A DNA stretch of 34,360 bases from Candidatus Nealsonbacteria bacterium (GTDB taxonomy: Bacteria; Patescibacteriota; Minisyncoccia; Minisyncoccales; GWA2-46-15): the NCBI GenBank assembly GCA_016207115.1, contig JACQQI010000024.1, forward strand, positions 1-34,360, in the 5' to 3' direction. Below are positions 1,478 to 33,732 of this stretch, in pieces. Positions within the stretch are counted from its first letter, which is position 1, and every line of letters begins with the position of its first letter. A model generated the notes under the pieces. That model made no database searches and was not told the DNA's origin. It saw nothing but the letters and a program-made list of their open reading frames with translations. The translations under genes were made by a program, and so were the position numbers.

Positions 1478-1550
1478 TTACCTTTTTGCGGAGCAAAAAA
1501 GCTAAGCTTTGTTTACCTTTTCGCGAAGCGAAAAGGCTAAGCTTTGCTTA
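1478..1550 (-). repeat. Repeat family A, two tandem 38-nt copies (1513-1550 and 1478-1515) sharing a TAA
   Basis: Minus strand TAAGCAAAGCTTAGCCTTTTCGCTTCGCGAAAAGG-TAA-ACAAAGCTTAGCTTTTTTGCTCCGCAAAAAGGTAA. Confidence 0.85.
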
Positions 1551-1554
1551 TTTT

Positions 1555-2157
1555 TTACAGCTTTGAGATTTCGGAAAGAAGGACATCGTTTCTCAGGCCC
1601 ATTTTAGGGTCATCGAGAGTGTAACGGATAATGCCGTTTTTATCGACGATGAAATAAGTATGTCCGGGGTAGCCACCGGGGTGCATCGGGGAGGGCGGGT
1701 GCATAGATGAAGACAGGGCCAAAATGTCGTAAGCCGTGGAAACTTTTCGATCAGAATCAAAAAGAATCTCGGCTTTTGAAAATTCTGGTAATTGGCTGAC
1801 GATCTTATCCCATTCGCTTTTTTGATCGATGACAATGGAAAACGCCCTTACCTTATCGGCGTTGAATCTTTCGTCGCCGGCAAGAGACTTGATCTGGTCC
1901 CAGCAGGCCGGGTAACACATTGCTCCTTCATTAAAAAAGAGGATGACCGTTTTCCCTCGATAATCGCTGAGCCGAACGGTTTTATTATTGATGTCTTGAA
2001 GAACAAAATCTGGAGCCTGTTTTCCGACGGCTTGGCTAAAGTTCAACTTCTCGTTCTCTGTCTTTGTCTCTGACAATCTCTGGGGTTGATTGAAATAAAT
2101 AAATAATGAGCCGACCACCAACAATAAAGAAAAAAGGGCGAGAATCTTAACAAACAT
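1555..2157 (-). CDS. Membrane-anchored thioredoxin-fold (AhpC/TSA/redoxin, Sco-like CxxxC) protein
   Basis: N-terminal TM; VGKQAPDFVLQD...LSDYRGKTVILFF; CYPAC motif; PGHTYFIVDKNGIIR. Confidence 0.8.
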   Translation of the reverse strand: MFVKILALFSLLLVVGSLFIYFNQPQRLSETKTENEKLNFSQAVGKQAPDFVLQDINNKTVRLSDYRGKTVILFFNEGAMCYPACWDQIKSLAGDERFNADKVRAFSIVIDQKSEWDKIVSQLPEFSKAEILFDSDRKVSTAYDILALSSSMHPPSPMHPGGYPGHTYFIVDKNGIIRYTLDDPKMGLRNDVLLSEISKL

Positions 2158-2200
2158 GTTGTTTTAACGATTAACGGCGTGGTTGATTATTTCGACTCTT

Positions 2201-2224
2201 TACCCAGACCTGGGGTGGGGGTAC
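2201..2224. promoter_or_regulatory. Second CsoR-type operator, upstream of the redoxin-ccdA-YHS operon
   Basis: TACCCAGACCTGGGGTGGGGGTAC aligns with the 324-342 site and lies just downstream of the -10 box. Confidence 0.6.
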
Positions 2225-2231
2225 TGATGTC

Positions 2232-2259
2232 ACCATAGCAGATGAGGAGTTTCTGTCAA
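2232..2259 (-). promoter_or_regulatory. sigma70 promoter of the redoxin operon
   Basis: TTGACA (2259-2254)-N16-extended -10 TGcTATGGT. Confidence 0.65.
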
Positions 2260-2307
2260 CTCGTGTTGGCGATGGGGTCAATCTGTGGTAGATTAAAGGA
2301 GAAATCG

Positions 2308-2379
2308 GCGGGTGTAGCACAACGGTCAGTGCGCTTGTTTTCCAAACAAGATAAGAGGGTTCGACTCCCTTCACCCGCT
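2308..2379 (+). tRNA. tRNA-Gly (TCC)
   Basis: Acceptor GCGGGTG/CACCCGC, anticodon arm CTTGT-TTTCCAA-ACAAG, GGTTCGACTCC T-arm; CCA not encoded. Confidence 0.95.
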
Positions 2380-2380
2380 C

Positions 2381-2408
2381 AAACAAAAGACAGCCCCAAA
2401 GGGCTGCC
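2381..2408 (-). terminator. Rho-independent terminator for minus-strand transcripts
   Basis: GGCAGCCC-TTTG-GGGCTGTC followed by TTTTGTTT. Confidence 0.7.
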
Positions 2409-2433
2409 CGTGGCATTTCATGAGAAGAGGGTC

Positions 2434-2538
2434 CTAACGGCCAAACAGATACCAAAGTAAAACGACGACGAGGACGGCGCAAGTCAGACCGGCGCCGTAG
2501 ACCAGTTTTTTATTGGCTAAAAAGTCTTGCGGTAGCAT
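2434..2538 (-). CDS. Putative 34-aa single-pass membrane protein (not in ORF track)
   Basis: MLPQDFLANKKLVYGAGLTCAVLVVVLLWYLFGR; basic residues then a hydrophobic helix; between rny and a terminator. Confidence 0.5.
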   Translation of the reverse strand: MLPQDFLANKKLVYGAGLTCAVLVVVLLWYLFGR

Positions 2539-2555
2539 AGTCACAAAAAGTTGTT

Positions 2556-2605
2556 TAAGAACCTCTCTGCGCGAGAACCTTGATTCTCGCCGAGGCTCGA
2601 ATTAA
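2556..2605 (+). repeat. Repeat family C, intergenic copy
   Basis: TAAGAACCTCTCTGCGCGAGAACCTTGATTCTCGCCGAGGCTCGAATTAA; hairpin GCGAGAA/TTCTCGC; homologous to 6918-6969. Confidence 0.75.
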
Positions 2606-2618
2606 GAAAAACGACCTT

Positions 2619-4151
2619 TTACCGAGCGTGCTCGGTGATCCTCAATTCGCGGATCAGATTGACCTTGATTTCGCCCGGATAGCGCAGCTCTTCCTGGATT
2701 TTGGCGGCAATCTCCTTGGCCATCTTTTTGGCGCCAAAGTCATCGATTTCGTCGGGGCGAACAAAAATCCGGATCTCTCTCCCGGCCTGCAAAGCCCAGG
2801 CTTTTTCGACTCCCGGAAAATTTAAAGCGATCGTTTCCAAGTCTCCCAGTCGTTTGAGATAATTCTCCACGGTGTCTTTCCGAGCGCCCGGCCGAGCTCC
2901 AGAAATCTGATCGGCTGTCTGAACCAAAACCGCCTCCAGGCTTTCGTAGGGATATTCTTCATGATGAGACTTCATGGCTGCGATCACGGCTTTTTCCACG
3001 CCGAACTTTTCTAAGATCTTAATGCCGATCTCGACGTGAGAGCCTTCGATTTGCTGGTCAACTGCTTTACCGACGTCGTGCAGAAGACCGGCTTTCTTCG
3101 CCACCTGAACGTTGCCGCCGATCTCGGCGGCCAGGCCGGCCGAAAGGTGAGCCACCTCGATCGAGTGCAAAAGAACATTCTGACCGTAGCTCGTCCGGAA
3201 CTTTAAGCGCCCCAGAAGCTGAACCAACTTCGGATCAAACCCGATGATGCCGGTCTCATAGATGGCCGTGTCGCCGGCTTCCCGGATTTGCTTGGCGATT
3301 TCCGATTCGGCTTTGGCCACTTCGTCTTCAATCCGCGCCGGTTGAATCCGGCCGTCTTGGATCAGTTTTTCCAAAGCCACTTTGGCGATCTGTCGTCGGA
3401 TCGGGTCAAAACCCGAAATGACGAGGGCTTGAGGCGTTTCGTCGATGATGACCTCCACGCCGGTTAATTTTTCCAGGGTCCGGATATTCCGGCCCTCCTT
3501 GCCGATGATGCGTCCCTTAATTTCGTCGTTGGGCAAAGCGATGGTGGTCGTGGTAATCTCTTGAGCCTGGGACAGGGCCTGTTTTTGGATGACCAAAGAC
3601 AATATCTCTTTGGCCTTTTTATCGAACTGTTCTCGACCATTCTCTTCCAGCTTTCTCATTCTTTCCATGATCTCCAACTGAGAACTATTTTCGACCTTGG
3701 CCAGCAACTCCTCTTTGGCCTCTCTCGCCGTCAGTCCCGAGACTCTTTCGAGCTCGGCGCGGGTCTTGAGATTGAGCTCTTCGATATTCTTTTTTACTTC
3801 TTTGAGTTTCTCCACCTTCTCGGAGAAATCCTGTTCGCGCCCTTCGAATTGGTCGATTCGTTGTTCTAACAAGCTTTCTCTTTTCAAAAGCAAACCCTCC
3901 GCGCGAAAGATTTCCTGGCGGCGATCCTCGGTTTCTTTTTGAGCGGTTTCGAGGAATTTTTGCGCCTTGGTCTTGGCCTCAGAGAGAATGGCCTCAGCCT
4001 CCACTCTGGCCTGAGAAGCCATCTTCTGCAGCCTGGCTTCAATACTGCCGAGAGTCCTCTTGGCAATTGATTGGCGCGTCAGATAGCCCAAGACGGATCC
4101 GACGGCCAAAGATAAAAACGCTAAGATAACAAGAAAGAGTGGTTGTTCCAT
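2619..4151 (-). CDS. rny: Ribonuclease Y
   Basis: N-terminal TM, coiled coil, KH motif KGRIIGKEGRNIR, HD domain (LLHDVGKA), AGREIR. Confidence 0.97.
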   Translation of the reverse strand: MEQPLFLVILAFLSLAVGSVLGYLTRQSIAKRTLGSIEARLQKMASQARVEAEAILSEAKTKAQKFLETAQKETEDRRQEIFRAEGLLLKRESLLEQRIDQFEGREQDFSEKVEKLKEVKKNIEELNLKTRAELERVSGLTAREAKEELLAKVENSSQLEIMERMRKLEENGREQFDKKAKEILSLVIQKQALSQAQEITTTTIALPNDEIKGRIIGKEGRNIRTLEKLTGVEVIIDETPQALVISGFDPIRRQIAKVALEKLIQDGRIQPARIEDEVAKAESEIAKQIREAGDTAIYETGIIGFDPKLVQLLGRLKFRTSYGQNVLLHSIEVAHLSAGLAAEIGGNVQVAKKAGLLHDVGKAVDQQIEGSHVEIGIKILEKFGVEKAVIAAMKSHHEEYPYESLEAVLVQTADQISGARPGARKDTVENYLKRLGDLETIALNFPGVEKAWALQAGREIRIFVRPDEIDDFGAKKMAKEIAAKIQEELRYPGEIKVNLIRELRITEHAR

Positions 4152-4195
4152 ATTGGATAAAACCTTGAGTCGGCTGCATCAAACTCTAGTTTAAG

Positions 4196-4780
4196 TTAAT
4201 TTTTAGTCTTGATGACCGCATCGATCAATCCGTAAGCCTTGGCCTCATCGGCCCCGAGGTAAAAATCACGATCGGTATCTTTTTCGATCTTTGCCAAAGA
4301 CTGGCCCGTGTGCTTGGCCAGAATCTGGTTCAGTTTTTCCCTGATTTTCAGAATCTGTTTGGCCGTAATCTCAATCTCCACGGCTTCGCCCGTTACCCCG
4401 CCAGCGACCTGATGCAGCAGGATTTCTGAATTGGGTAGGGCAAATCTTTTGCTTTTTTGACCCGCACACAGCAAAACCGCTCCCATGGAGGCGGCTAAGC
4501 CCACGCAAACCGTGGAAATGTCCGGTTTGACGTGTTGCATCGTATCATAGATGGCCAAGCCGGCCGTGACCGAACCGCCGGGAGTATTAATGTAGAGCTG
4601 GATGTCCTTGGCCGGGTCTTTCGAGGCCAAAAACAAAAGCTGGGCAATGATAGAATTGGCCACCTGGTCCGTGATCGGCCCGGCGAGAAAAACGATCCTC
4701 TCCTTGAGGAGACGGGAATAGATATCGTAAGCTCTCTCGCCAAACTGGGATTTTTCAATTACGGTTGGGATCAGATTCAT
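4196..4780 (-). CDS. clpP: ATP-dependent Clp protease proteolytic subunit
   Basis: [38 protein letters not shown]. Confidence 0.98.
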
Positions 4781-4805
4781 GTAAGTAATCTTACGTAAAT
4801 CATCT

Positions 4806-4840
4806 TAACAAAAATCTCCCCGTCCGTAAAGGACGGGGAG
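4806..4840 (-). terminator. Terminator downstream of hppA
   Basis: Hairpin CTCCCCGTCC-N5-GGACGGGGAG followed by ATTTTTGTT on the minus strand. Confidence 0.75.
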
Positions 4841-4860
4841 CGGGCCTTTTCGAATCAAAA

Positions 4861-6843
4861 TTAAACCAGAAAAGCCACGATCAGAAGGGCGACGATGTTG
4901 ATAACCTTGATCATGGGATTTATGGCGGGCCCAGCCGTGTCTTTGTAGGGGTCGCCGACCGTGTCGCCGGTCACGGCCGCCTGATGGGCAAAAGAACCCT
5001 TGCCGCCGTAGTTGCCTTCTTCGATGTACTTTTTGGCGTTATCCCAGGCCGCTCCCCCGGAAGTCATGGAAATGGCCAGAAAGAGGCCGGTCAGAATGCT
5101 GCCCATCAAGACTCCGGCCAGGGCCAGCGGCCCCAGAAGAAAACCAATCAGGATCGGCGCCAAGACCGGCAAGAGAGTTGGGACGACCATTTCTTTCAGC
5201 GCGGCCTTGGTCACGATATCAACACACTTTCCGTACTCCGGCTTTTGCGTTCCCTCCATCAAGCCCGGAATTTCTTTGAATTGCCGACGAACTTCGTTAA
5301 CGACCTGACCCGCGGCCTTGCCCACGGCGAGCATGGCCAGAGAAGCAAAAAAGTAGGGGATGAGGCCGCCCAGGAAAAGCCCGACGATTACTTTCGGGTC
5401 GTCCAAAGAAAACTGGAAACGGCCGCCGGCCGCCAGCAGTTCCTGGGTGAAGCTGGCAAAAAGCACCAGGGCCGCCAATCCCGCCGAGGCAATGGCGTAG
5501 CCCTTGGTGACGGCTTTGGTCGTATTGCCCACCGCGTCTAAGGCATCGGTAACTTTCCGGACGTCTTCACCGGCACCCGACATCTCGGCCAAGCCGCCGG
5601 CATTGTCCACAATCGGCCCGAAAGCGTCAATGGCGATGATTAGACCCGTCAAAGAAAGCATGGCGACCGTGGCCAGGGCCACGCCGAAAATCCCGGCCAG
5701 CCAGAAACTGACCAGGATGCCCGAGGAAATTAAAATGGTCGGCAGGACGGTCGACTGCATGCCCACGGCTAAGCCGATGATGACGTTCGTCCCGTGACCG
5801 GTTTGAGACGAGGCGGCGATAGACCTAACCGGCGAGTGTTTTTTGGAAGTGAAGTACTCGGTGATGGCAAAGATTCCCGCGGTCACGACCAGGCCTACCA
5901 AAGAAGCCAAATAGAGCTTATTCGCCGAAAAGGGACTCAGCCGGCTGAACTTTTGGATAATCGGATAGAAGCCCAGGGCAGCGACTAAAGCGGAAACGAT
6001 CAGTCCTTGATAGAGAGCGGGCATGATTTCTTGGTTTCGACCCAGACGGACGAAAAAACTGCCGACGATCGAGGCGAGGATAGCTACCATCCCGAGGAAA
6101 AGAGGTAAAAGTACCAGGGGCGAGTCGGCCGAGACCAAGAGAGATCCGAGAATCATTGTCGAGATCAGAGCGATGACATAGGTTTCAAAAAGATCGGCGG
6201 CCATGCCGGCGCAATCACCCACGTTGTCGCCGACCTGATCGGCGATCACGGCCGGATTCCGAGGATCGTCTTCGGGAATGCCTTTTTCTACTTTACCGAC
6301 GATGTCGGCGCCGACGTCCGCGGCCTTGGTATAGATGCCGCCGCCCAGTCGGGCAAAAACAGAAATCAAGGAGCTGCCCAAGCCCAAGGCCACCAAGGCC
6401 TTCAAATCATTGGTCAAAAGATAGAACCCGGAAACGACCAGCAAGCCCAGCCCGACCACCAGAAAGCCGGTCACTGATCCGCCCTTGAAAGCCAGATCGA
6501 GAGCCGAGCTCAATCCTTTTTGAGCCGCCGCGGTTACCTTGTGATTGGCCTGAGTCGAAACGATCATACCCAAAAACCCGCAGAGGCCAGAGACAAAAGC
6601 CCCGAGCAGAAAAGCGAGTCCGGCCCGGAAACCCAAGACCAGAGACAAAAGAATGAAAAGAAAAGCGGCCACGGCCGCGATGGTTTTGCCCTGCCTCTGG
6701 AGATAGGAAAGAGCGCCCTGACGGATTCCAAGACTGATCTCGAGAGCCCGAGGCGAACCAGCGGGGGCCTCTCCGATCTTTTTGACCAAGAAGAAGACAA
6801 AGAGCAGGGCTAAAAGAGAAACGAGAATGGGAAAAAACAACAT
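4861..6843 (-). CDS. hppA: Membrane-bound ion-translocating pyrophosphatase, K+-independent signature
   Basis: [52 protein letters not shown]. Confidence 0.96.
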
Positions 6844-6858
6844 ATCGCTTCGCGTTAT
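6843..6858 (-). repeat. Fragment of repeat family B abutting the hppA start codon
   Basis: ATAACGCGAAGCGAT(ATG) resembles ATAACGCAAAGAGATATATCG at 33419. Confidence 0.35.
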
Positions 6859-6860
6859 TA

Positions 6861-8204
6861 TTAAGCTTCTTTTTTGTCTTTTTTGACTTTGGGCTGGCTT
6901 TTTTTGGGTGTCGCCTTTTGATTTCGAGCAGGGTGAGAAACAAGGTTCTCACCAAGAGCGAGGTTCTTAGTTTTTTTCTCGGCCGGCTGACCTGAACCCT
7001 CTTTGATCTCTGCCGGCGGCTCGACCGGCGTCTCCTCTGGCGTTGATTCCTCTGCGGATTTCGAAGAAGATTCTGCCTCGCTCCGCACGTCAATTTTCCA
7101 GCCCGTGAGTTTGGCCGCCAATCTCACGTTCTGGCCGTCTTTGCCGATGGCTAGAGATAGCTGGTCTTCTGGAACAATGGCGAGGGCCAGGTTCTTCTCT
7201 TCGGTTTTGACCTCGAGTACCTTGGCTGGACTCAGGGCATTGGCAATCAAGTCGGCGGGATCGTCAGACCAATTGATGATGTCTATCTTCTCGCCGCCCA
7301 GTTCGTTGATGACGGTCATGACCCGAGTGCCCCTCTGGCCCACGGCGGCGCCGATCGGATCGATTCTCTCGTCATTGGAGAAAACGGCGACTTTGGATCG
7401 AGAACCCGCTTCTCGGGCGATCGATTTTATCTGGACTTGGCCCGAAGCAATTTCCGGCACTTCCAGCTCGAAAAGCCGAGAAATCAATTTCGGATGCGAT
7501 CGGGAAAGGAAGATGACCGGTCCCCGGGGTGTGTTCTCGGTTTTCAAGAGATAGACTTTTAGGCGCTGACCGGGGCGGTAAAACTCTCCCGGGACCTGTT
7601 CCTCTCGCGTCAGGATGCCGAGAGTCTTGCCAATGTTGAGGAAAACGTTGCGCCCTTCGATCCGCTGGACAGTTCCCGAGACCGCTTCTCCCTCTTTGGC
7701 CTGAAATTCGGAAAAAACGGTTTCCTTCTCGATCTCTTTGATCTTTTGTAAAACCACCTGCTTGGCGGTCTGGGCGGCGATGCGACCGAAAGAAGAAGCC
7801 GATTGAGACTCGAGGGGGAACTCCAATTCTTCCCCGGCCTTGACTCCTTTTTTAACTTTCTTGGCCTCCGCCAGTACCAAATGCCTTTCGGGATTAAAGC
7901 GGATCTTTTTTTCTTGTCCCTCTCCGGCCATCTCCGGAGTTTCCGGCCGGCCGGTTGTTTTCAGCTCTTCCAGCTCTGCCTCGGAGTAGATCATCTTGTC
8001 GTCCACTATCAGCTTCACCTGCCAAAACTCAACTTCGCCGGTGTCCAAATCCAGCTTGGCTTTGATCAACTGGCCCTTTTTGCCGTAATCTTTTTTATAG
8101 GCCGAGGACAAAGCCTGTTCGATCGTCTCGATGACTTTTTCCTTGGGGATGCCGCGCTCTTCAGAAATCTGATTGATGGCGGCAGCGAATGATTTTAAAT
8201 CCAT
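6861..8204 (-). CDS. nusA: Transcription termination/antitermination factor NusA
   Basis: [13 protein letters not shown]1 domain, [33 protein letters not shown]; ATG 8204 preferred to TTG 8222; low-complexity C-terminal tail. Confidence 0.97.
6918..6969 (-). repeat. Repeat family C, copy inside the nusA coding tail
   Basis: TAAGAACCTCGCTCTTGGTGAGAACCTTGTTTCTCACCCTGCTCGAAATCAA, translated as [17 protein letters not shown]. Confidence 0.75.
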
Positions 8205-8261
8205 ATTTAGATTTAACCTCAAAAACGAAGAAACGTCAATTTTAGAAAGATGGGACGAACC

Positions 8262-8582
8262 TTATCCGCGCGATGACAATAATAGGATGATCGTCACCGC
8301 GACAACGAAAAAAATGAGCCAAGCTAGAGTGGCGAAGAGCAGGCCAAAGGCTTCTTTTTTGAGGCCGCTCAAATAGAGGTGGATGGGTTGGCCCAAGACC
8401 AACAGGCTCGTTACGGACGCCGATATAATAAACAGAAGTAATAAGAAAAGCGGCACAAGGAAACTGGGCGCCTGACCAAAAATAACTTGTCCGTTAAAAA
8501 GCAGCCACGCGACGGCAGACGTATATAAAAAGACGCCGAGCGCATTTAATAAACTTTTCCAAAAGTATTCCAGTTTTTTCAT
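8262..8582 (-). CDS. Hypothetical 3-TM membrane protein
   Basis: Three hydrophobic segments; ATG at 8582 preferred. Confidence 0.75.
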   Translation of the reverse strand: MKKLEYFWKSLLNALGVFLYTSAVAWLLFNGQVIFGQAPSFLVPLFLLLLFIISASVTSLLVLGQPIHLYLSGLKKEAFGLLFATLAWLIFFVVAVTIILLLSSRG

Positions 8583-8619
8583 TGATTTACGGAAAGCCGG
8601 TACGAGCAATTTAGGACAG

Positions 8620-8690
8620 TGGACCTGGCGAGAATCGAACTCGCGCCTCTACAATGCGAATGTAGCGTAATGCCACTTTACTACAGGCCC
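8620..8690 (-). tRNA. tRNA-Ala (CGC)
   Basis: GGGCCTG/CAGGTCC acceptor with G3:U70; anticodon arm CTACA-TTCGCAT-TGTAG. Confidence 0.94.
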
Positions 8691-9136
8691 GTTTTACTTT
8701 TCCAAACAGTCTCCAGTAGTTTTAAGAAACGAGTAAAAAGAAAAATCCCTAAGATCTCGACGGTGAGCACGGAAATATCTCTCAATGTTCCGATGGGATA
8801 GCCTTCTCGAGAGTAGCTGAAATAATCTCGGCTCCAGAAATTGACAACATACAGGGCCGTCGTCAGGAGCACCCAGGCGTAGACAAAGAACTCACCGTTC
8901 CTCTTGTTCTTTTTCTCGCCCAGCCAGCGCACCAGTTCTTTGTGTAAAGAATAGATTAACAAGACGGATAGGTAGAATAGATTCATTCTGGCCGGGAGAA
9001 AACTACCCCGGCTGAAAAAATCAGCGGTCATCATCCCCATCGTCGCCAGGGTGACAATGGCACAGATGAAAAAAAGGTTTTGACTGATGCCAGACTCGAT
9101 TTTCTTCAAATCGTCCGGCCGCTCATTGTTTTGCAT
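8681..9136 (-). CDS. Hypothetical 4-TM membrane protein
   Basis: 151-aa ORF filling the space between two tRNAs; its stop codon lies within tRNA-Ala. Confidence 0.75.
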   Translation of the reverse strand: MQNNERPDDLKKIESGISQNLFFICAIVTLATMGMMTADFFSRGSFLPARMNLFYLSVLLIYSLHKELVRWLGEKKNKRNGEFFVYAWVLLTTALYVVNFWSRDYFSYSREGYPIGTLRDISVLTVEILGIFLFTRFLKLLETVWKSKTGL

Positions 9137-9141
9137 ATCTT

Positions 9142-9212
9142 TCGGGGCGTCCAGATTTGAACTGGAACAGCTGACTCCCGAAGCCAGTATACTACCATTA
9201 TATTACGCCCCG
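9142..9212 (-). tRNA. tRNA-Pro (CGG)
   Basis: CGGGGCG/CGCCCCG acceptor; anticodon arm CTGGC-TTCGGGA-GTCAG; TTCAAAT T-loop. Confidence 0.95.
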
Positions 9213-9220
9213 TAACTAAT

Positions 9221-10690
9221 CTACGTGACCCAGTATTTTTCTTTGGTCATCTCGTCTCTCTTCTGCTCGATTTGTTCTTTGCCCTTCTCGGCTTCCCGGG
9301 CCAGAGCGTCCAACTCTTTATCGGAAAGGCGGCCGAGCCGGACGACTTCTTTCCGCAAGGCCTCTTTTTTGTTCTTCTTTGGATCCTCCAGAATCTGTCC
9401 TAAAAGAATGTCGAGGATCTGTCCCACCTTCGGGCTCGGTGAGATTTTCAGGATTTCCATAACGTCGTGGCCGTTGACTTTGAGCATTTTGGCAGAAATG
9501 GGATCGGTTGAAACTCTCGCCATCAGATAGCGCAGATGGCGCAACTTATAGGGCTCGGCTTTGGGCACGCCCGATCCGATCCGGTCGGCATAACGCACCT
9601 GCAAAAGTTCCTCGATGTTTTCCGGACCGGCGTTGCGCAAAAGCCTTCGGACCGAACTCTCGCCAACTTCGCCGACATTATAATAGAAAAGGTGGTAGCG
9701 GACAAGCCGGACGACTTTGACGCTCAGGTCGCGCGGCAGCCGCAAACGTTCCAAAATCTTGGCCGTCAGGCGGGCGCCGACGATTTCGTGCCCGTAGAAA
9801 GTCGCTTCGGGTCCCTCGCCCTTTTTGACTCGGGGCTTGGCGATGTCGTGAAAAAGCGCGGCCAGCCTCACGGCTAAGTTAAAATTCTTGGTGGCGGCGT
9901 ATTTTAGAGAGAAAAGATTGTGTTCGTAACAGTCATAGATGTGGTGTTTGTTTTGGCCGCAACCAACGCCCTCTTCGAGTTCGGGCACCACATATTTCAA
10001 AAGTCCCAGGCGGCGCAAAAGTTCGACGCCGTCGGCCGCTTTTTCTGATTCGATGATTTTGACAAACTCGTCGCGGATTCGCTCGATAGAGATCAACTTG
10101 AGAAGGGGGGCGTTTCGGACGATCGCCGCGCGGGTTTTTTCTTCCAGGCTGAATTTCAGAACCGTGGCCAATCTCACTGCCCGCATCAATCGCAAGGCGT
10201 CTTCAGAAAATCGGTCGTTCGGATTGCCCGCCGCCCGAACGATCTTCTTCTTCAAGTCCGCCTGACCAGAGAAAGGATCAATGATTTCCGGGCTCTTGGC
10301 GCCCACCCCTTTTCTCAGTTTTAGGGCGATGGCATTAATGGTAAAGTCTCTCCGGGCCAGATCCTCCTCCAGCGTTTGGGCAAAGTTGATTTCGTCGGGA
10401 TGTCTTTTGTCGCTGTACTTGGCCTCCGAGCGAAAAGTGGTGATTTCAATCTCTTTGAGCTTGGGGTCTTTGCTCTGGGTTTGAACCGTCACCGTCAAAA
10501 ACCGATTTTCGTAAAAGTTGTCGGGAAAAATCTTTTGGATCTGCTCTGGGACCGCCGAGGTGGTCACGTCCCAGTCATTGGGTTCCCGGTCCTGCAGAAA
10601 ATCACGGGCGCAACCACCGACGACATAGGCCTCAAAACCCGCTTTCTCCAGCTTATTGATGATTGATTTGACCTCTTTGGGGATTAACAT
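9221..10690 (-). CDS. cca: CCA tRNA nucleotidyltransferase with HD domain
   Basis: YVVGGCARD, DWDVTT, DLARRDFTINA, EDALRLMRA, LFHDIAKP. Confidence 0.92.
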   Translation of the reverse strand: MLIPKEVKSIINKLEKAGFEAYVVGGCARDFLQDREPNDWDVTTSAVPEQIQKIFPDNFYENRFLTVTVQTQSKDPKLKEIEITTFRSEAKYSDKRHPDEINFAQTLEEDLARRDFTINAIALKLRKGVGAKSPEIIDPFSGQADLKKKIVRAAGNPNDRFSEDALRLMRAVRLATVLKFSLEEKTRAAIVRNAPLLKLISIERIRDEFVKIIESEKAADGVELLRRLGLLKYVVPELEEGVGCGQNKHHIYDCYEHNLFSLKYAATKNFNLAVRLAALFHDIAKPRVKKGEGPEATFYGHEIVGARLTAKILERLRLPRDLSVKVVRLVRYHLFYYNVGEVGESSVRRLLRNAGPENIEELLQVRYADRIGSGVPKAEPYKLRHLRYLMARVSTDPISAKMLKVNGHDVMEILKISPSPKVGQILDILLGQILEDPKKNKKEALRKEVVRLGRLSDKELDALAREAEKGKEQIEQKRDEMTKEKYWVT

Positions 10691-10697
10691 CGGTTTA

Positions 10698-10726
10698 ATC
10701 TTAGCTTAAAACCCGGTTAACTTCAA
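10698..10726 (-). promoter_or_regulatory. sigma70 promoter of cca, probably giving a leaderless mRNA
   Basis: TTGAAG-N17-TAAGAT-N7-ATG. Confidence 0.55.
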
Positions 10727-10749
10727 TTGATAAAATGACCGATTTGTTT

Positions 10750-10786
10750 TATAACGAATACGATATATCGAGCTATCGCCCGCTAT
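10750..10786 (+). repeat. Repeat family B copy
   Basis: TATAACGAATACGATATATCGAGCTATCGCCCGCTAT. Confidence 0.8.
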
Positions 10787-10800
10787 GGTTAAGGCAGTTC

Positions 10801-10872
10801 GCCCCCGTGGTGAAATGGATATCACGCGACGCTTCGGACGTCGAAGTCCGGGTTCGAGTCCTGGCGGGGGCA
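10801..10872 (+). tRNA. tRNA-Arg (TCG)
   Basis: GCCCCCG/CGGGGGC acceptor; anticodon arm CGACG-CTTCGGA-CGTCG. Confidence 0.95.
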
Positions 10873-10938
10873 CAATTAAGTTTCAGATAAAAACTGCTAT
10901 ACTTAAGATAGGGTGATAAAATTTTAACGTCTTAGCCC

Positions 10939-11364: not shown

Positions 11365-11369
11365 ACGGA

Positions 11370-11876: not shown

Positions 11877-11877
11877 C

Positions 11878-11953
11878 GCCCCCATAGCTTAATTGGCAAA
11901 GCAACTTCCTCTTAAGAAGATGAGTCCTGGTTCGAGTCCAGGTGGGGGCACCA
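11878..11953 (+). tRNA. tRNA-Lys (CTT)
   Basis: GCCCCCA/TGGGGGC acceptor; loop CTCTTAA; CCA encoded. Confidence 0.93.
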
Positions 11954-11956
11954 AAA

Positions 11957-13598: not shown

Positions 13599-14109
13599 AA
13601 CCCCCAGCGCGATTAAACATGCCGAACAACGGATTTTGGTTTTATTTGACGTCCAAAATCTCTACCATTCGGCCAAAAATCTCTACGGCGCCCGCGTCAA
13701 TTTCGCCAGCATCTTAAAAACGGCGGTGGCCCAAAGGAGATTGATTCGTGCCTTCGGCTATGTGGTTCGGACAAAAACGGGCGAAGAAAAGCCCTTTTTC
13801 GAAGCTCTGACCAAGCTGGGCATTGAGACCCGGGTCCGGGATTTACAAGAATTCTACGGCGGACTCAAAAAAGCGGATTGGGACGTGGGCATCGTCATTG
13901 ATGCCATCCGCAGCGTTCATAACTACGACGTCATTTGTCTTTGCTCCGGCGACGGCGACTTCATCCCTTTGCTCGAATATCTGGAGAACCAGGGTAAAAG
14001 GACTGAAGTCATTGCCTTCGGCCGCTCGGCTTCGGCCAAATTGAAAGAAATTGCCGATGAGTTTATCGACCTGGGCACTTCTCCAGAAACCTACTTGTTA
14101 AGAAAATAA
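13564..14109 (+). CDS. NYN domain (LabA/DUF88, PIN-like) protein
   Basis: FDVQNLY, KADWDVGIVID, SGDGDF, ADEFID; start uncertain because both ATGs overlap rpsO. Confidence 0.88.
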   Translation: MKPSRESGWETKTPSAIKHAEQRILVLFDVQNLYHSAKNLYGARVNFASILKTAVAQRRLIRAFGYVVRTKTGEEKPFFEALTKLGIETRVRDLQEFYGGLKKADWDVGIVIDAIRSVHNYDVICLCSGDGDFIPLLEYLENQGKRTEVIAFGRSASAKLKEIADEFIDLGTSPETYLLRK

Positions 14110-14144
14110 GCAGGGCTTAGCTTTCTCGCTTCGCTCGAAAGTAA
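14107..14144 (+). repeat. Repeat family A copy; its first TAA is the NYN stop codon
   Basis: TAAGCAGGGCTTAGCTTTCTCGCTTCGCTCGAAAGTAA. Confidence 0.7.
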
Positions 14145-14173
14145 ATTTAACAATTAAGTTGATTAATTAGGCT

Positions 14174-17724: not shown

Positions 17725-17762
17725 ATAGCGGGCGGAACGCCCGATATATCGTACTCGCTATA
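17725..17762 (-). repeat. Repeat family B copy between convergent genes
   Basis: TATAGCGAGTACGATATATCGGGCGTTCCGCCCGCTAT. Confidence 0.85.
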
Positions 17763-19774: not shown

Positions 19775-19812
19775 TAAGCGAAGCTTAGCCTTTTTACTTT
19801 GTAAAAAGGTAA
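19775..19812 (+). repeat. Repeat family A copy
   Basis: TAAGCGAAGCTTAGCCTTTTTACTTTGTAAAAAGGTAA. Confidence 0.85.
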
Positions 19813-27364: not shown

Positions 27365-28981
27365 ATGCACAAAGGCTTGGGTAAGAAAGTTTCAATCGTT
27401 CTCTTTGTCTTGTTGCTTTTGGGAATAGCCCAGGCGGTTTTAGCTATCGAAATCAGCTACCCCCAGATTCCCGGCGTGGAAGCGCCGCAGGATTTCTTAC
27501 CCAAGATTCAATCCGGCCAATATCCGGGCGAACAGGCTCTGCCGCTTTTCGTTAAATACCTCTACGCCCTCGGGCTGGTCGCCAGCACCGTGCTGACCGT
27601 CATCTCTCTCATCTACGGCGGCGTCCTCTACATTCTCTCCGGCTCAAATCCCGGGAAAATGATCGGCGCCAAAGATCAGATCACGACGGCTTTCTTAGGA
27701 CTGGGACTGCTCCTCCTGTCTTACCTCTTCTTGAATATTCTCAATCCCGACTTATTGGTAATGAAGCTGCCGTCGGTCAGTCGGCCCGTTTTTTCGCCGC
27801 CTCCCGATACCCCGCCGCCCGGAGAGGCCGTCTTGGTTTTCTGGGAATTGCCCCTGGGGACGATCTTCAACGACATTTCTAATATTTTCCCTCAGGTCAA
27901 ACCAGCCAGCCAGGACGTCAAAGACAAAGCGGACATCGCCAAACAAGCGTCTCAAGAGTTGGTCGATCTGCTCAACTCCTGTCAATGCCAAAACCTTTCC
28001 CCTCAGTGTTCGAGTCTGACCTGCTCGGCGCTCGCCTGTCTCGGCACGAGAAATAATCTCTGTCCGAACTTGAGCGTAATCGAAGCCAAAAAACAGGACC
28101 TGATGAATAAATTGGGAATTCTTAAAGTTTCCAGGAAAAACTTGGCCATCATCAAATTCAACCTGCAAAAAGAAACGAGCCGTCTCCAGGTGGCCGAGAC
28201 CCTGATGAAAAGCTGCACCTACGTGCCAATTGATTTAAATACGATGCTCGGCCTCAAACAAACGAGCCGGGTCGAAATCAAAAAGCCCTGGTCGGAAACC
28301 GACGCCAAAAACAATCCTTTGTCTTTCTATTGTCAAATGGATGAAGCGTTCGTGACGCAAACGATCTTTGATTGGCGGGAGATGATCGCCCAGCTGGAAT
28401 CGATACTGAACACCGATCCTGACGACATTCCTTTACCGCCGCCTTCTCCCGGCCCGCTGCCCACCGGTACGCCCGGACCCGGTCCGTCGCCGGTTCCCGG
28501 CTTCTCTTTTAACCTGCCTCTGTCCTGGACCTGCCTCACTGATATTTGCAATGTGCGGCGGAGCGTCTATTACTGTCACGAGGGATTAGATTTGTATGCC
28601 GCCGAAAATTCGCCCATCTATGCCGTGGCCGACGGAGAGATAGCGGGCTCGGGCGACTTCACCGCCGACTGTCCGCCCGGAGGCGCTTACGGTCGATGGG
28701 TCGCCGTTAAGCACCAAGTCGGCACTCAGGAAATGACCAGTTTCTATGGTCACCTAAATTCGGTGCTGGTGACTTCCGGCCGCGTCGCTCAGGGCCAAAT
28801 CATCGCCTACAGTGGCAACACCGGTAGTAGCACCGGGCCGCATCTGCATTTCAGCCTGACCGTTAATTTCGCCCCGGGTTGTTTGAATCGAGGTACTCCC
28901 TTAGATCCGCAAAAATGGCTACCGGCCATCGGTTGGTGTTCCGGCTTCAGCGGCACGCCCGATTGTTCTATTTGTCAGTAA
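27365..28981 (+). CDS. Pilin-like module + Cys-rich helical domain + M23 peptidase fusion
   Basis: Signal peptide, two-TM pilin (AKDQI...SYLFLNILNPDL), Pro linker, HEGLD, YGHL, TGPHLHF. Confidence 0.85.
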   Translation: MHKGLGKKVSIVLFVLLLLGIAQAVLAIEISYPQIPGVEAPQDFLPKIQSGQYPGEQALPLFVKYLYALGLVASTVLTVISLIYGGVLYILSGSNPGKMIGAKDQITTAFLGLGLLLLSYLFLNILNPDLLVMKLPSVSRPVFSPPPDTPPPGEAVLVFWELPLGTIFNDISNIFPQVKPASQDVKDKADIAKQASQELVDLLNSCQCQNLSPQCSSLTCSALACLGTRNNLCPNLSVIEAKKQDLMNKLGILKVSRKNLAIIKFNLQKETSRLQVAETLMKSCTYVPIDLNTMLGLKQTSRVEIKKPWSETDAKNNPLSFYCQMDEAFVTQTIFDWREMIAQLESILNTDPDDIPLPPPSPGPLPTGTPGPGPSPVPGFSFNLPLSWTCLTDICNVRRSVYYCHEGLDLYAAENSPIYAVADGEIAGSGDFTADCPPGGAYGRWVAVKHQVGTQEMTSFYGHLNSVLVTSGRVAQGQIIAYSGNTGSSTGPHLHFSLTVNFAPGCLNRGTPLDPQKWLPAIGWCSGFSGTPDCSICQ

Positions 28982-29015
28982 GCGAAGCTTAGCCTTTTCG
29001 TAAACGAAAAGGTAA
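28979..29015 (+). repeat. Repeat family A copy; its first TAA is the upstream stop codon
   Basis: TAAGCGAAGCTTAGCCTTTTCGTAAACGAAAAGGTAA. Confidence 0.85.
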
Positions 29016-29019: not shown

Positions 29020-30243
29020 ATGAGTACAAGAATATTATTCATTTCTCTCCTCTCTCTTGCCCTGATCGCCATCTCGGGTAGCGTGGCCTTGGCTCAGCAG
29101 AGTCCGGGTGAAAACATCACCTGCCCCCTAGACAAGGAGGTGCCCGTCGGCCAAATCATCAACCAATTGGAATACACCAACGATCAGATATTGAGACAAT
29201 TACAGAGTATCGACGACGCGGCCGTTCGCATTTTGCAAAACGGGAAAAGCTTGACCGAGTTGACCGCCGGCTGTCAAACAAGCAATTGCAATTCTGACTG
29301 CCGATCAGAAGACGTCCCAACTCCCTGCAACGGCACCCCGAGCACCAGCTGTACGCCCGGGTACACCTGCACCTACCAGAGCACGGTCCCGGGCAGCTCC
29401 GCCCCCAATACTAGCTGTACAACCTTGCCGACCACCGGATCTATGACCATCAATCCCTCGGGTTATTACGGTCTTTTTGGCTGGCGCGAAAATAGCGGCT
29501 ACCCTTGTAATCCTTACGACTGTCCCGATTCGAGCTTTAATCCCAACGCTTACTATTGCACGACCGGCGACAATTGTGTCTATCAGAATTACACCCACAC
29601 CGGTCAAGAGATTATCAGCGGAGGCTATTCTCGTCAGAGCTGTGTCAATCTGCCCAATAATTTGAGTATTAATGCGAGCTCGACCTATGCCATCTATCAA
29701 TGGTCCGGCGTCCACGGCGCCGGCTGGTGCAACGTTCTCTGGCCAACTACCACTTGCTACGATACTTGCTATAATGAAGGCGGCTGTAGCGTGGATTGGA
29801 CCTGTACTACTCAGGTCTGCCGACAAGACGCCTGTTCGGGCCAGGCCTGCAATTTCACCGAGATCAGCGCCAAGATGAATACCATTTCCCAATCGACCCA
29901 GACGATCAGGGATTCGAACCAAGCGATCATCGATATTTTCGACAAGAAGGTAGCCGAGTTGCCACTCCTGGGCAATATCTGCCAGATTCCCGGAATCGGA
30001 GTCGTCTGCGACTTCTGTGACATCTTTAGTCTGATCTTTACCGGCTGCAAAACAGAGATTGAAACCATCCTCTCTCTGCTCCAAAAGAGCCTGACCAACG
30101 TCAAAGACTGTTGGAATGACCCGGCCGATTACGAAAAGATCATTTCGGGAGAAAAATCAGGCAAATTCTTGATGAGTTGCGAAGAGCTGAGGCCGGGCGT
30201 CTTAAAAGAATGCTATCCCAATAATTTCTTTTGTTGTAAGTAA
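29020..30243 (+). CDS. Secreted Cys-rich protein
   Basis: Signal peptide (VALA), many Cys, helical heptad segments flanking a Thr/Cys/Tyr-rich insert. Confidence 0.8.
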   Translation: MSTRILFISLLSLALIAISGSVALAQQSPGENITCPLDKEVPVGQIINQLEYTNDQILRQLQSIDDAAVRILQNGKSLTELTAGCQTSNCNSDCRSEDVPTPCNGTPSTSCTPGYTCTYQSTVPGSSAPNTSCTTLPTTGSMTINPSGYYGLFGWRENSGYPCNPYDCPDSSFNPNAYYCTTGDNCVYQNYTHTGQEIISGGYSRQSCVNLPNNLSINASSTYAIYQWSGVHGAGWCNVLWPTTTCYDTCYNEGGCSVDWTCTTQVCRQDACSGQACNFTEISAKMNTISQSTQTIRDSNQAIIDIFDKKVAELPLLGNICQIPGIGVVCDFCDIFSLIFTGCKTEIETILSLLQKSLTNVKDCWNDPADYEKIISGEKSGKFLMSCEELRPGVLKECYPNNFFCCK

Positions 30244-30268
30244 CCTTTTTCACCCCGTAAAAAGGTAA
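30241..30268 (+). repeat. Truncated repeat family A copy (hairpin half only)
   Basis: TAACCTTTTTCACCCCGTAAAAAGGTAA. Confidence 0.6.
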
Positions 30269-30272
30269 TTCC

Positions 30273-31583: not shown

Positions 31584-32047
31584 CCGAGCGGCTTGGGCTT
31601 GATGACCACTCTTCTCTCGGCGCCCTCACCCCGGCTTTCCGTGACCACGTCGGATCGGTCCACCAGGGTCAGGTGGACGATCCGCCTCTCTTGGGCGGAC
31701 ATCGGTGAAAGTTCTTTTTCTATCCTCAGAAGCGAAACTTCGTTGGCCGTCGTGTGAGCTAGCTCTTCGAGGTAGATGTTCTTCTTTCTCTTGTAGCCGT
31801 TGACGTCGAGATCTAAAAAGAACGGCTCAACAATTTTGCGTCGCAAAATCAGGCGAAGGAGGTATTGGATTTCCGTCAAGGTTTGACCTTGTTCCCCAAT
31901 CAACAATTGGGGTATTTCTGTCTCTAAATCAATCTTGAAAGTTTCTCCTTCGAGATCGCTCTCTTTAATTTCGACCTCGAGGGTTGCTTTCTGGAAAAAC
32001 TCCTGGACGGTATTTTTAATTGTGTCTTGTTGTTCTCGGGAAAGCAT
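31580..32047 (-). CDS. jag: Jag/KhpB-like KH + R3H RNA-binding protein (short form)
   Basis: LLIGEQGQTL, LDVNGYK, PMSAQERRIVH, ESRGEGAERRVVI; downstream of yidC. Confidence 0.9.
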   Translation of the reverse strand: MLSREQQDTIKNTVQEFFQKATLEVEIKESDLEGETFKIDLETEIPQLLIGEQGQTLTEIQYLLRLILRRKIVEPFFLDLDVNGYKRKKNIYLEELAHTTANEVSLLRIEKELSPMSAQERRIVHLTLVDRSDVVTESRGEGAERRVVIKPKPLG

Positions 32048-32087
32048 TTTATCTCGGGTTAGACTAAGAAGTGGTGTTTAGTAAATT

Positions 32088-32828
32088 TTATTTACTGCTG
32101 GGTTCGACTAGAGGATATCTCTTGTTCAAAAAATACTGCTGACCAGCGGTCAAAAAAGAAGTGGCCAACCAATAGAGGCCTAGGGCCGAGGGCAGCTTGA
32201 GGAGAATGAAAACGGTCAGGAAGGGCAAAAAAAATATCATCTGCTTTTGGATCATCTTGTTTATCTGGTAGCGCGGATCATCCTTGTCTGTCTGGCCCGG
32301 ATTGAGCGGCGTAACCAGAGACTGCGCCAACTGACCTAGTCCAGCGAGGATCGCCAACCAGAGATTGGGCTGAGAAAGATCGACCAATCCCAGAAACTGA
32401 GGGCTGATTACTTCTGGCCGAACGATAAAACTATAGAGATGATTCTGCTGACCCCAGAGACCGCTCAAAAAAAGCTGGTACAGCGCGATCAGGATGGGGA
32501 ATTGGATCAACAGAGGAACAAAACTACTCCAGGGATTAACTTTTTCTTTCTTAAAGATCTCCGACATGACTCGAGCCTGCTCGGCCGGGCGATCTTTGTA
32601 TTGCTTTTGAGCTTCCTTGAGCTGGGGTTGGATCCGAGCCATGGCCTGCTGCAGCTTAAAAGCCCTGACATTTAAGGGCAGGGTCGAGAGCTTGATGATG
32701 AACGTCAGGGCAATGACAGCCAGGCCCAGGTCGTGTCCGGGCAGAAGGTTATAAATGAGAACCAGGGCGTTGAAGAGTGGCTGGTAAAGAAAAATCTGGA
32801 AGAATTCGCCGATAAAACTGAGGTTCAT
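32088..32828 (-). CDS. yidC: Membrane protein insertase YidC/Oxa1
   Basis: IQPQLKE, PLLIQFPILIALY, LPSALGLYW. Confidence 0.95.
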   Translation of the reverse strand: MNLSFIGEFFQIFLYQPLFNALVLIYNLLPGHDLGLAVIALTFIIKLSTLPLNVRAFKLQQAMARIQPQLKEAQKQYKDRPAEQARVMSEIFKKEKVNPWSSFVPLLIQFPILIALYQLFLSGLWGQQNHLYSFIVRPEVISPQFLGLVDLSQPNLWLAILAGLGQLAQSLVTPLNPGQTDKDDPRYQINKMIQKQMIFFLPFLTVFILLKLPSALGLYWLATSFLTAGQQYFLNKRYPLVEPSSK

Positions 32829-32837
32829 CTGAATAAT

Positions 32838-33218
32838 CTATTTTTTAATAGCGGGCAAACAGCCCGATATATCGTTGGGCGTTATCAAATCGGCTTTTTT
32901 TAAGAAGAAAAGGATCATTTCGGCCGCCTCTCTCAGATCCTTTTTCTCCAGGTCTTTCCGAGCCGACAGGACCAGATCCCAACCGGGCTTGACGAGAAAC
33001 AGATTCGACCTCATCGCCTCTCTGAGTTTTCTTTTTATTCGATTGCGTTGACTGGCCCGGTTAAATGTTTTCTTGCTAGCCAGAAAGCCGAAACGACTGA
33101 AAGAATGATCATTGCCGACAAACTTTATGGAGAGAAACTGATTATTTTGACTTCGGCCATTTTTCAAGACGTGCGCGAAGTCGCGTTTTTGTCTTAAGCG
33201 ATGACGACTCGGCAGCAT
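32838..33218 (-). CDS. rnpA: Ribonuclease P protein component
   Basis: RL...DF, RFGFLASKK, RNRIKRKLRE; position between rpmH and yidC. Confidence 0.95.
   Translation of the reverse strand: MLPSRHRLRQKRDFAHVLKNGRSQNNQFLSIKFVGNDHSFSRFGFLASKKTFNRASQRNRIKRKLREAMRSNLFLVKPGWDLVLSARKDLEKKDLREAAEMILFFLKKADLITPNDISGCLPAIKK
32848..32885 (-). repeat. Repeat family B copy inside the rnpA 3' coding end
   Basis: ATAACGCCCAACGATATATCGGGCTGTTTGCCCGCTAT, translated as ITPNDISGCLPA. Confidence 0.85.
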
Positions 33219-33238
33219 GGCCTTTAAATCTCGTAAGA

Positions 33239-33373
33239 TTAGACCGTTAATCTTTTCCTTTCCTTTCGCCGCCGACGAGCGATGACTCTTCGACCGACCG
33301 AAGTCCGGCTTCTCTTTAGAAAACCGTGTACCCTACTTCTCTTCCTTTTTTTGGGTTGATAGGTAATAGACAT
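33239..33373 (-). CDS. rpmH: 50S ribosomal protein L34 (not in ORF track)
   Basis: [44 protein letters not shown]. Confidence 0.97.
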
Positions 33374-33398
33374 ATCAATTAAATTAGATTCATCAAAT

Positions 33399-33427
33399 AG
33401 TCTAGCAAATTCTTATCGATAACGCAA
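33399..33427 (-). promoter_or_regulatory. rpmH promoter; its -35 lies inside a family B repeat
   Basis: TTGCGT-N17-TAGACT with an extended TG. Confidence 0.6.
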
Positions 33428-33455
33428 AGAGATATATCGTGCTCTTCGTGACATA
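33419..33455 (-). repeat. Repeat family B copy (short-hairpin variant)
   Basis: TATGTCACGAAGAGCACGATATATCTCTTTGCGTTAT. Confidence 0.7.
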
Positions 33456-33632
33456 AAGAGGCGCATCGAATCTCGTCCTTTGCAATAATTACTGCGCCTC
33501 GCCCCAACAAGATTAAAAATTGCTATTATTTCGGATCAGTTTTTCTGTTAATTTGACCTCGGCGCCATTGTCAACGATTATTCCACTCTTTGTCCACAAC
33601 TTGTTAAGACGGGGGGTGGGTTTGATCTCTTT
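33456..33632. other. Candidate oriC or DnaA-regulated region
   Basis: rpmH-dnaA intergenic position; one near-consensus DnaA box TTGTCCACA (33590-33598); AT-rich stretch around 33481-33555. Confidence 0.4.
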
Positions 33633-33661
33633 TTGCCCTTTCTCGAGCCGAAAGATATAAT
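33633..33661 (+). promoter_or_regulatory. dnaA promoter
   Basis: TTGCCC-N17-TATAAT. Confidence 0.7.
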
Positions 33662-33732
33662 AACGAGCAGGAGCTCGATATATCGGGCAATCTTGCCCGC
33701 TATGACGAATACGATATATCGCTTTGCGCTAT
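33660..33732 (+). repeat. Repeat family B, two tandem copies sharing a TAT, in the dnaA leader
   Basis: ATAACGAGCAGGAGCTCGATATATCGGGCAATCTTGCCCGC-TAT-GACGAATACGATATATCGCTTTGCGCTAT. Confidence 0.85.

Follow-up and report, generated by a model that had tools for sequence, protein, structure and literature searches.

Contig JACQQI010000024.1 of the Candidatus Nealsonbacteria bacterium assembly GCA_016207115.1, whose 34,360 nucleotides are referred to here as the window, carries bacterial genes, including those for RNase Y, NusA, PNPase, RnpA, YidC and DnaA, and, between or inside them, very short hairpin-forming repeats that fall into three families, A, B and C. The PNPase shows up to 83-84% amino-acid identity to that of Candidatus Wildermuthbacteria and other Parcubacteria/Patescibacteria. 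The whole assembly (G000; 87% complete) measures 476 kb in 27 contigs, of which the window is C17, and it was compared with the other genomes of its genus, which is represented by eight genomes including G001-G005 and G007; synteny of G000 with G002 and with G007 is good, at ~75% DNA identity. Our analysis indicates that A, B and C are probably miniature, non-autonomous, hairpin-forming insertion elements of one Candidatus Wildermuthbacteria-like genus, resembling repetitive extragenic palindromes (REPs) and miniature inverted-repeat transposable elements (MITEs). The first-pass annotation of this DNA, made from the sequence alone, had already recognised three hairpin families with 15 units in the window, and the total stands, the A and B patterns being absent from 100 shuffles; its division into 13 full copies and two fragments is replaced here by 12 full and three short or partial ones (five A plus one short form, five B plus two partial units, and two C).

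Family A, of 29-36 nt, reads TAAGC-nnn-GCTTA, a 5-bp hairpin with a triloop, followed by GC and then by a second hairpin, CCT...AGG, whose opening CCT and closing AGG are constant and whose inner stem and loop vary with each copy (stem variants include CCTTTTCG/CGAAAAGG, CCTCGC/GCGAGG and CCTTC/GAAGG). Its pattern TAARCNNRGCTTAGC rendered five matches in the window, at 1501-1515(-), 1536-1550(-), 14107(+), 19775(+) and 28979(+), and none in 100 shuffles. G000 holds 27 copies, and the commonest 11-mer of the family occurs 14 times in that genome. Two adjacent hairpins are predicted in 19 of the 27 copies, with a mean folding z-score of -2.26 against dinucleotide shuffles, and no terminal inverted repeats (TIRs) are found in this family.

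Family B, of 31-44 nt, has the form ATAGCG-x-CGATATATCG-y-CGCTAT, that is, two inverted hairpin arms (ATAGCG-x-CGATAT and ATATCG-y-CGCTAT) that overlap by AT without any spacer and carry one conserved mismatch each. The outermost hexamers, ATAGCG and CGCTAT, are perfect mutual complements, and x and y are variable, each remaining self-complementary. The centre CGATATATCG occurs five times in the window and in none of 100 shuffles; genome-wide, G000 has 59 GATATATC centres against ~6.7 expected by base composition, 52 full B units, and B-derived 11-mers as its commonest, with up to 38 copies. One or two hairpins are predicted per unit (mean z-score -1.21 against dinucleotide shuffles), the usual fold being a single arm and not one long hairpin. 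Stems of both A and B vary between copies yet remain complementary, and the folding scores agree with the earlier description of hairpins with a variable loop. Tandem B units overlap by AT, giving CGCTATAGCG; the trinucleotides previously noted at the two tandem junctions, TTA (TAA on the minus strand) at 1513-1515 for A and TAT at 33701-33703 for B, were found as described. Some B ends merge into TATAAT-like boxes, such as CGCTATAAAT upstream of dnaA and another at C25:16698 (contig and position in G000, as below unless another genome is named). A role of B as a leaderless-mRNA promoter was considered and rejected, because the distance from the TATAT centre to the ATG is inconstant, ranging from 13 to ~24 nt. 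Family C (~48 nt) consists of TAAGAACC, a GAGAACCTTGnTTCTC hairpin and GCTCGAA; besides the two window copies, which are among about four units in G000, it is commoner in G002.

A scan of 41 related genomes, covering 33 genera of one order, rendered the A pattern in three (G000, G002 and G007) and the B pattern in nine, seven of them within the genus. Half-matches to B number 93 in G000, 32 in G002, 29 in G003 and 35 in G007, with 2-5 in G001, G004 and G005; outside the genus there is one B match in G029 and four in G033, and reversed control patterns gave no match in the 41 genomes. Essentially, A and B belong to a single genus. In a search against Rfam no covariance model matched A, B or C: only five tRNAs reached the gathering score, and at E <= 0.05 only two further sub-threshold hits appeared, both on tRNA genes. 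An exact 20-nt B arm found no match in viral contigs; the single match of the A core pattern there lacks hairpin 2 and looks like chance. The literature searched, outside which most subscription-journal papers lie, contained no description of such elements in Patescibacteria.

The strongest evidence that these units move comes from orthologous sites. Each A or B site of G000 and G007 was mapped to the other genome through its flanks, using nearly all of G007 (531 kb). About half of the sites were unmappable; among the 65 that could be placed (43 of 86 in G000 and 22 of 41 in G007), a short motif match identified an element of the same family at the orthologous place in none. Two cross-family flags arose in one spacer, and these are different insertion points, since the elements flank opposite sides of a conserved promoter-like sequence. 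Clean boundaries between filled and empty sites were seen at at least 15 A or B sites. For A they include window positions 28979, 14107 and 30241, C12:6054, C24:5741 and C11:10984, as well as G007 C25:27029 and C21:4216. At 28979, for instance, G000 reads CAG[TAAGC...AAAAGG]TAAAAACATG and G002 reads CAGTAAAAACATG; at 14107 the pair is AGAAAA[TAAGC...GAAAG]TAAATTTAAC in G000 and AGAAAATAGATTTAAC in G002. For B, all seven clean pairs take the form X-AT-[AGCG..CGCT]-AT-Y against X-AT-Y. Empty orthologous sites of the kind that the first-pass annotation proposed to look for are therefore present in congeners, and its view of very small, non-autonomous mobile units is supported, the mobility being recent; we regard mobility of the units as very likely.

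Some junctions hold different families in different species. At the NYN/PNPase junction, where G000 has the A copy at 14107, G001 carries, on the opposite strand, a C-like element; a C-like fragment lies at C27 ~1973-2014 of G000 where G007 has A, and G002 differs in repeat family after rnpA and at rnpA/yidC. Judging from such comparisons, certain stop codons appear to be recurrent landing sites.

Contigs from the Logan collection, derived from four groundwater DNA runs of one study, were compared with window positions 1-20000. Those bridging the A copy at 14107 and the B copy at 17725 carry the elements, and none of the 15 contig joints listed, of 44, coincides with an element. At 14114 contigs from three runs have A in place of G in the loop of A hairpin 1, which gives AGA, the commonest loop, and not AGG. 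Being contigs, and possibly from the source sample, these data are uninformative on activity. Logan contigs begin and end within the repeats, which explains the breakpoints of the public assemblies of this organism.

The junctions revealed by the empty sites differ from the earlier description, in which each hairpin unit was bounded by a 3-nt direct repeat. The A element, [TAAGC...AGG], sits directly 5' of a T, most often the T of a resident stop codon; the triplet 3' of the element is then the resident stop, be it TAA, TAG or TGA. At C24:5741 a TAG follows the insertion point in the filled and the empty genome alike, and A therefore supplies its own TAA; the empty sites corresponding to C12:6054 and 30241 have TAG and TGA, respectively. 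Moreover, five of 47 A copies, two of them from G000 and three from G007, sit nested within B at a single point of its centre, GATATA^TC, in differing host B copies and with differing loops, and read GATATA[A]TC without a 3-nt repeat in any of the five. The apparent 3-nt repeat of A is thus no demonstrated duplication, since it consists of the element's own end and a similar-looking target. Likewise, the TAT...TAT of B is accounted for, at seven of seven clean sites, by an AT dinucleotide on either side together with the palindromic end of the element itself. It may be that 1 nt (T) is duplicated by A, or 2 nt (AT) by B. Several empty B sites contain AT but no TA, which excludes a TA duplication of the Tc1/IS630 type. 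In one place, G007:C3:~7930-8050, three additional 16-nt pieces, TATTAAGCTCTGCTTA, lie in tandem after an A copy nested in B, and their sequence reads as a local partial duplication of the A end.

Placement relative to genes was assessed with a simple in-house caller (440 genes, 86% of G000), with which counts of adjacency to ATG or stop codons are approximate. In 13 of 27 G000 copies the TAA of A ends an open frame that is 60 codons or longer, against 7.6% of non-coding TAA sites being stops (binomial P = 2e-8); stop codons of the called genes are TAA in 217 cases, TGA in 119 and TAG in 90. Eighteen of the 27 copies are co-oriented with both flanking genes, six are antisense to both and three are mixed. 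Many A copies of G007 lie in tandem arrays or nested in B. As for B, 15 of 52 G000 copies (2 of 17 in G007) adjoin the ATG of a frame of 60 codons or more, 15 of 52 lie within 15 nt of a stop codon, and only two of 52 are inside called genes. Where B lands on a start codon the ATG is rebuilt, and where A lands on a stop codon the upstream protein is unchanged, because A carries its own TAA 5' of the T of the resident stop. Motifs resembling Shine-Dalgarno (SD) sequences precede 73 of 431 called starts, and the count inside genes is 77 of 440, 17% in both cases, and this lack of SD enrichment would explain why insertion directly before an ATG is tolerated. A function of A and B as intrinsic (Rho-independent) terminators was also considered and discarded, the T-run being lacking: sense-strand A hairpins are followed by TAA and A-rich sequence, and B has no T-run either. 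The copies stack in tandem, nest (A within the B centre) and sometimes lie in reading frames; they would persist mainly at gene boundaries, because these are the only harmless places in an 86%-coding genome. The units of the window are collected in Table 1.

Table 1. Hairpin units of families A, B and C in the window
Unit	Coordinates	Strand	Structure and context
Family A copy 1	1481..1515	(-)	TAAACAAAGCTTAGC + hairpin ...AAAAAGG; 3' flanking TAA at 1478-1480, then C, then ATG of DsbD-like gene
Family A copy 2	1516..1550	(-)	In tandem with copy 1; starts 4 nt past the AhpC-like stop codon
Family C copy 1	2556..2603	(+)	TAAGAACC...GCGAGAACCTTGATTCTCGC...GCTCGAAT; orthologous spacer of G002 without copy
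Family B half unit	6842..6858	.	ATATCG-CTTCG-CGTTAT; fills the 17-nt gap between nusA stop and H+-PPase start; overlaps AT of that ATG
Family C copy 2	6921..6969	(-)	Within lysine-rich C-terminal tail of the nusA open reading frame (ORF); translated through, 17-residue peptide; no counterpart in G002 or G004, where alignment is poor
Family B copy	10751..10786	.	Between CCA-adding enzyme gene and tRNA-Arg; missing in G002, G007
Family A copy	14107..14141	(+)	TAA is the stop of the NYN-domain gene; resident TAA at 14142-14144; empty in G002 (stop TAG), G007, G003, G004
Family B copy	17725..17761	.	Between convergent dksA-like and LysM/M23 genes; missing in five congeners
Family A copy	19775..19809	(+)	Spacer of ksgA and ALTTAQ-repeat gene, directly after TGTGGTAGAAT promoter-like -10; TAA next, 19810-19812
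Family A copy	28979..29012	(+)	TAA is the stop of the M23 peptidase gene; resident TAA at 29013-29015; clean empty site in G002, CAGTAAAAACATG
Family A short form	30241..30265	(+)	TAA + hairpin 2 only; on the stop of a 407-aa gene; TAA follows, 30266-30268; empty in G002, stop TGA
Family B copy 3	32848..32885	.	In 3' tail of rnpA ORF, translated through; rnpA/yidC junction without element in G007, with another hairpin in G002
Family B degenerate copy	33419..33447	.	rnpA-dnaA spacer
Family B copy	33660..33703	.	Upstream of dnaA; first of tandem pair, AT overlap at 33702-33703
Family B copy	33702..33732	.	Second of tandem pair; left arm mutated to ATGACG; end runs into TATAAAT upstream of dnaA

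Two regions of the window deserve mention in their own right. The rnpA-dnaA spacer (33375-33701) is ~250-300 nt longer than in G002 and G007, and the extra DNA holds the degenerate B copy and a TTGTCCACAAC stretch, which we take to resemble a DnaA box. Between 23413 and 31583 there is a co-directional cluster coding for a PrgI-like protein, a VirB4/TraG-like ATPase, an M23 peptidase and several unknown proteins, and its gene content suggests a type IV secretion or conjugation-like module; gene junctions of this cluster hold two A copies.

The families probably multiplied independently in single species of the genus. With regard to mechanism, we suppose that the units would move as single-stranded hairpins, and that an enzyme provided in trans would do the cutting and pasting. 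Of the enzyme families searched for, no Y1, TnpB, DDE_Tnp_1, DDE_3, rve, IS110 or resolvase was detectable in the 87% complete G000. Y1_Tnp (PF01797) is present in seven of the eight genus genomes, in genes of ~240 aa, and of the transposase-type families it alone turned up in each of the other three repeat-rich genomes (G002, G003 and G007); the NHFHLL in the translated Y1 genes of G007 is read as a putative HUH motif (His-hydrophobic-His). G000 and G007 lack DDE_Tnp_1, DDE_3, rve and IS110, whose occurrence in G002 and G003 is patchy (one DDE_3 gene in G002; DDE_Tnp_1, rve and IS110 genes in G003), and none of TnpB, these four families or resolvase is common to the repeat-rich genomes. There is one Xer-like tyrosine recombinase per genome examined, which in G000 is the only tyrosine recombinase. 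Its domain is split at G000:C3:10573-12372 (-), with profile positions 2-135 and 135-170 ~1.2 kb apart in one 747-aa open frame, an arrangement that may reflect an intein. Genes bracketed by B in G000 were inspected as candidates for a mobilising gene and only housekeeping genes were found, with N-termini that we take to be glmS-, mnmA- and greA-like. Y1 is the only shared candidate enzyme; it fails the test of being flanked by the elements and does not track their copy number. An HUH Y1 transposase of the RAYT/IS200-like type (RAYT, REP-associated tyrosine transposase) is our best guess for the moving enzyme, a guess that we hold tentatively.

Several observations weigh against this assignment, and others weaken the overall reading. 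G000, which has the highest numbers of A and B copies, has no Y1 gene or remnant (PF01797, no candidates; best tblastn E = 1.1). The best NCBIfam match of the Y1 proteins is indeed the REP-associated tyrosine transposase, with scores of 28.6 and 59.7 bits that fall below the curated cut-off of 80. Nor does the number of Y1 genes follow that of the repeats, as G005 has seven Y1 matches, no A and two B. Each Y1 gene inspected (four in G007, one in G002) is bracketed by inverted hairpins of its own and not by A, B or C. The AT on both sides of B would equally fit a 2-bp target duplication or the crossover dinucleotide of a recombinase. The stop association is weaker in G007, where a long frame is closed by only four of the 20 A copies, and the approximate gene calls and the short motif match used to recognise same-family elements add to these reservations.

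The hairpins that flank the Y1 genes of G007 and G002 read TTGTGCT...AGCACAA and GTAAAGTATC...GATACTTTAC, the pair of G002 being different. The first of these, here family D, brackets Y1 genes in G007 (C19 and C21) and occurs in G000 as three copies on C4 (717-745, 1285-1312 and 1938-1965), with no Y1 gene. From sequence features, D together with Y1 looks like a REPtron-like system in bacteria of the candidate phyla radiation (CPR). The Y1 gene of G002 (C17:34704-35417) also contains a copy of its own flanking hairpin within the coding sequence. Hairpin 1 of family A (TAAGCnnnGCTTAGC) resembles one variant of the Y1-flanking hairpins (GTGCTAAGC-GAG-GCTTAGCAC); an origin of A from such a hairpin is only a lead, because it concerns 12 shared bases and one variant.

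Other interpretations can be set against the same observations. The units could be MITEs of a DDE transposase (IS630/Tc1-like or IS5/Harbinger-like), with AT for B and TAA for A and C as true target-site duplications. B does have terminal inverted repeats, AGCG...CGCT, with AT on both sides at seven of seven clean sites, most A copies are flanked by TAA...TAA, and genes of the relevant families exist in G002 (DDE_3) and G003 (DDE_Tnp_1, rve and IS110). However, A lacks TIRs, a 3-nt duplication fails at C24:5741 (TAA...TAG, empty TAG) and in all five nested copies, a TA duplication fails for B, whose empty sites have AT and no TA, and no DDE family is common to the repeat-rich genomes or found in G000 or G007. 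In addition, at 25-44 nt the units are much smaller than typical MITEs, which PMC3184786 describes as generally shorter than 200 bp, with TIRs and duplications. We consider this origin decidedly unlikely. It is also conceivable, though improbable, that the three families represent a hitherto undescribed class of micro-insertions of 25-45 nt in which several unrelated hairpin families share one insertion chemistry, with the junction at T or AT and no true duplication. A would then be a self-contained stop-codon cassette entering operon junctions with neither protein altered, and the agent would be either a divergent RAYT-like Y1 acting on non-cognate hairpins or an activity not so far recognised as a transposase.

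It could also be the case that the units, mobile as they are, have been retained for a role in RNA, A as an intercistronic cassette of a stop codon, two hairpins and an AGG close before the following start, which would stabilise or couple operon mRNAs, and B as a self-closing hairpin before starts. The 18 sense copies of A between co-directional genes and the 13 beginning on a stop codon would fit such a role, as would the called start found within 6 nt of the 3' AGG in six of the 18, the co-varying stems, and the perfectly complementary ends of B (ATAGCG/CGCTAT), which could loop out; yet congeners manage these junctions without any element, six A copies run antisense to the genes on either side, no SD usage is seen in the genome for the AGG to serve, and tRNA spacers, ORFs and the origin region hold copies as well. 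We hold retention for such a role to be rather unlikely. That the repeats are fixed, vertically inherited promoters, terminators or operators is highly improbable: B ends that merge into TATAAT-like boxes and the mostly intergenic location would agree with it, and it is contradicted by the orthologous-site census, in which no site of 65 is conserved between two congeners, by the absence of the families from the majority of congeners and from the order's 32 other genera, save for 1-4 B-pattern matches in two genomes, by the nested and tandem copies, and by the lack of a T-run after sense A hairpins. Small insertion elements moved in trans remain the interpretation that we favour.

Genomes of CPR bacteria (Patescibacteria) are considered streamlined, with little mobile DNA. 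In this 0.48-Mb genome, about 90 copies of four hairpin families make up ~5% of the non-coding DNA, and the precision with which they land on stop and start codons shows a way for selfish DNA to survive where 86% of the sequence is coding. Annotation is affected, since the repeats supply stop codons, start codons and C-terminal tails. If an enzyme were tied to the elements, it would be a compact, highly site-selective inserter of single-stranded DNA; and if the units were micro-insertions as set out above, these would be the main form of mobile DNA in otherwise insertion sequence-poor CPR genomes.

Among known systems, palindrome-associated transposable elements (PATEs) are ends-only derivatives of IS200/IS605 that move as single strands by 'peel and paste' and have distinct left and right subterminal hairpins and a 4-5-nt 5' target. 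The elements described here may share with them a dependence on hairpins and strand, a short fixed target alongside and, going by the five nested A copies, the lack of a target duplication; in contrast, the only constant flank of A is a 3' T, and neither TnpA nor TnpB was found in G000. Mycobacterial interspersed repetitive units (MIRUs) are tandem minisatellites of 46-101 bp without a two-hairpin design; like A they are sense-oriented in operon spacers and overlap flanking stop and start codons, and we know of no precise single-copy stop-codon insertion described for them.

A comparison with REPs, with their doublets (REPINs) and with the associated RAYTs of Enterobacteria and Pseudomonas is closer. 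According to PMC3184786, REPs measure ~35 bp (21-65 bp), and A and B resemble them in size, in being imperfect palindromes, in a mostly intergenic location and in their tens of copies. B may further recall, in part, the doublet of two inverted hairpin units, and A and B share with REPs a variable part that differs per copy with the hairpin kept, and tandem mosaics; RAYT-like Y1 genes are present in this genus too. On the other hand, REPINs are ~89 bp long and include a spacer (PMC3337134), whereas the arms of B overlap by 2 nt, and a cognate RAYT is expected to be flanked by its own REPs, whereas the hairpins beside the Y1 genes here belong to a different, fourth family, and G000 yielded no Y1 gene. 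Unlike REPs, A is no doublet, is strongly oriented and carries a stop codon; C is no doublet either. REPIN populations are stated in preprint abstracts to persist in a lineage for millions of years by vertical inheritance, and here no insertion site is common to the congeners compared, with complete turnover between species.

Two further cases, both from PMC3184786, share single traits with the elements. Rickettsia palindromic elements (105-146 bp) are fused in frame to genes, and C copy 2 and B copy 3 are likewise translated as protein, in the tails of nusA and rnpA, respectively; unlike them, most copies here lie exactly at gene boundaries. IS1397 and IS621 insert specifically into REP sequences, so that, as with A in B, one repeat family is the preferred target of another mobile element, although A is a 30-nt hairpin repeat without a transposase gene. 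Taken together, the elements are set apart from REPs and REPINs by the lack of a cognate transposase among the genes found, by their very small unit, by the stop codon and precise junction that A brings with it, and by the full turnover of their sites.

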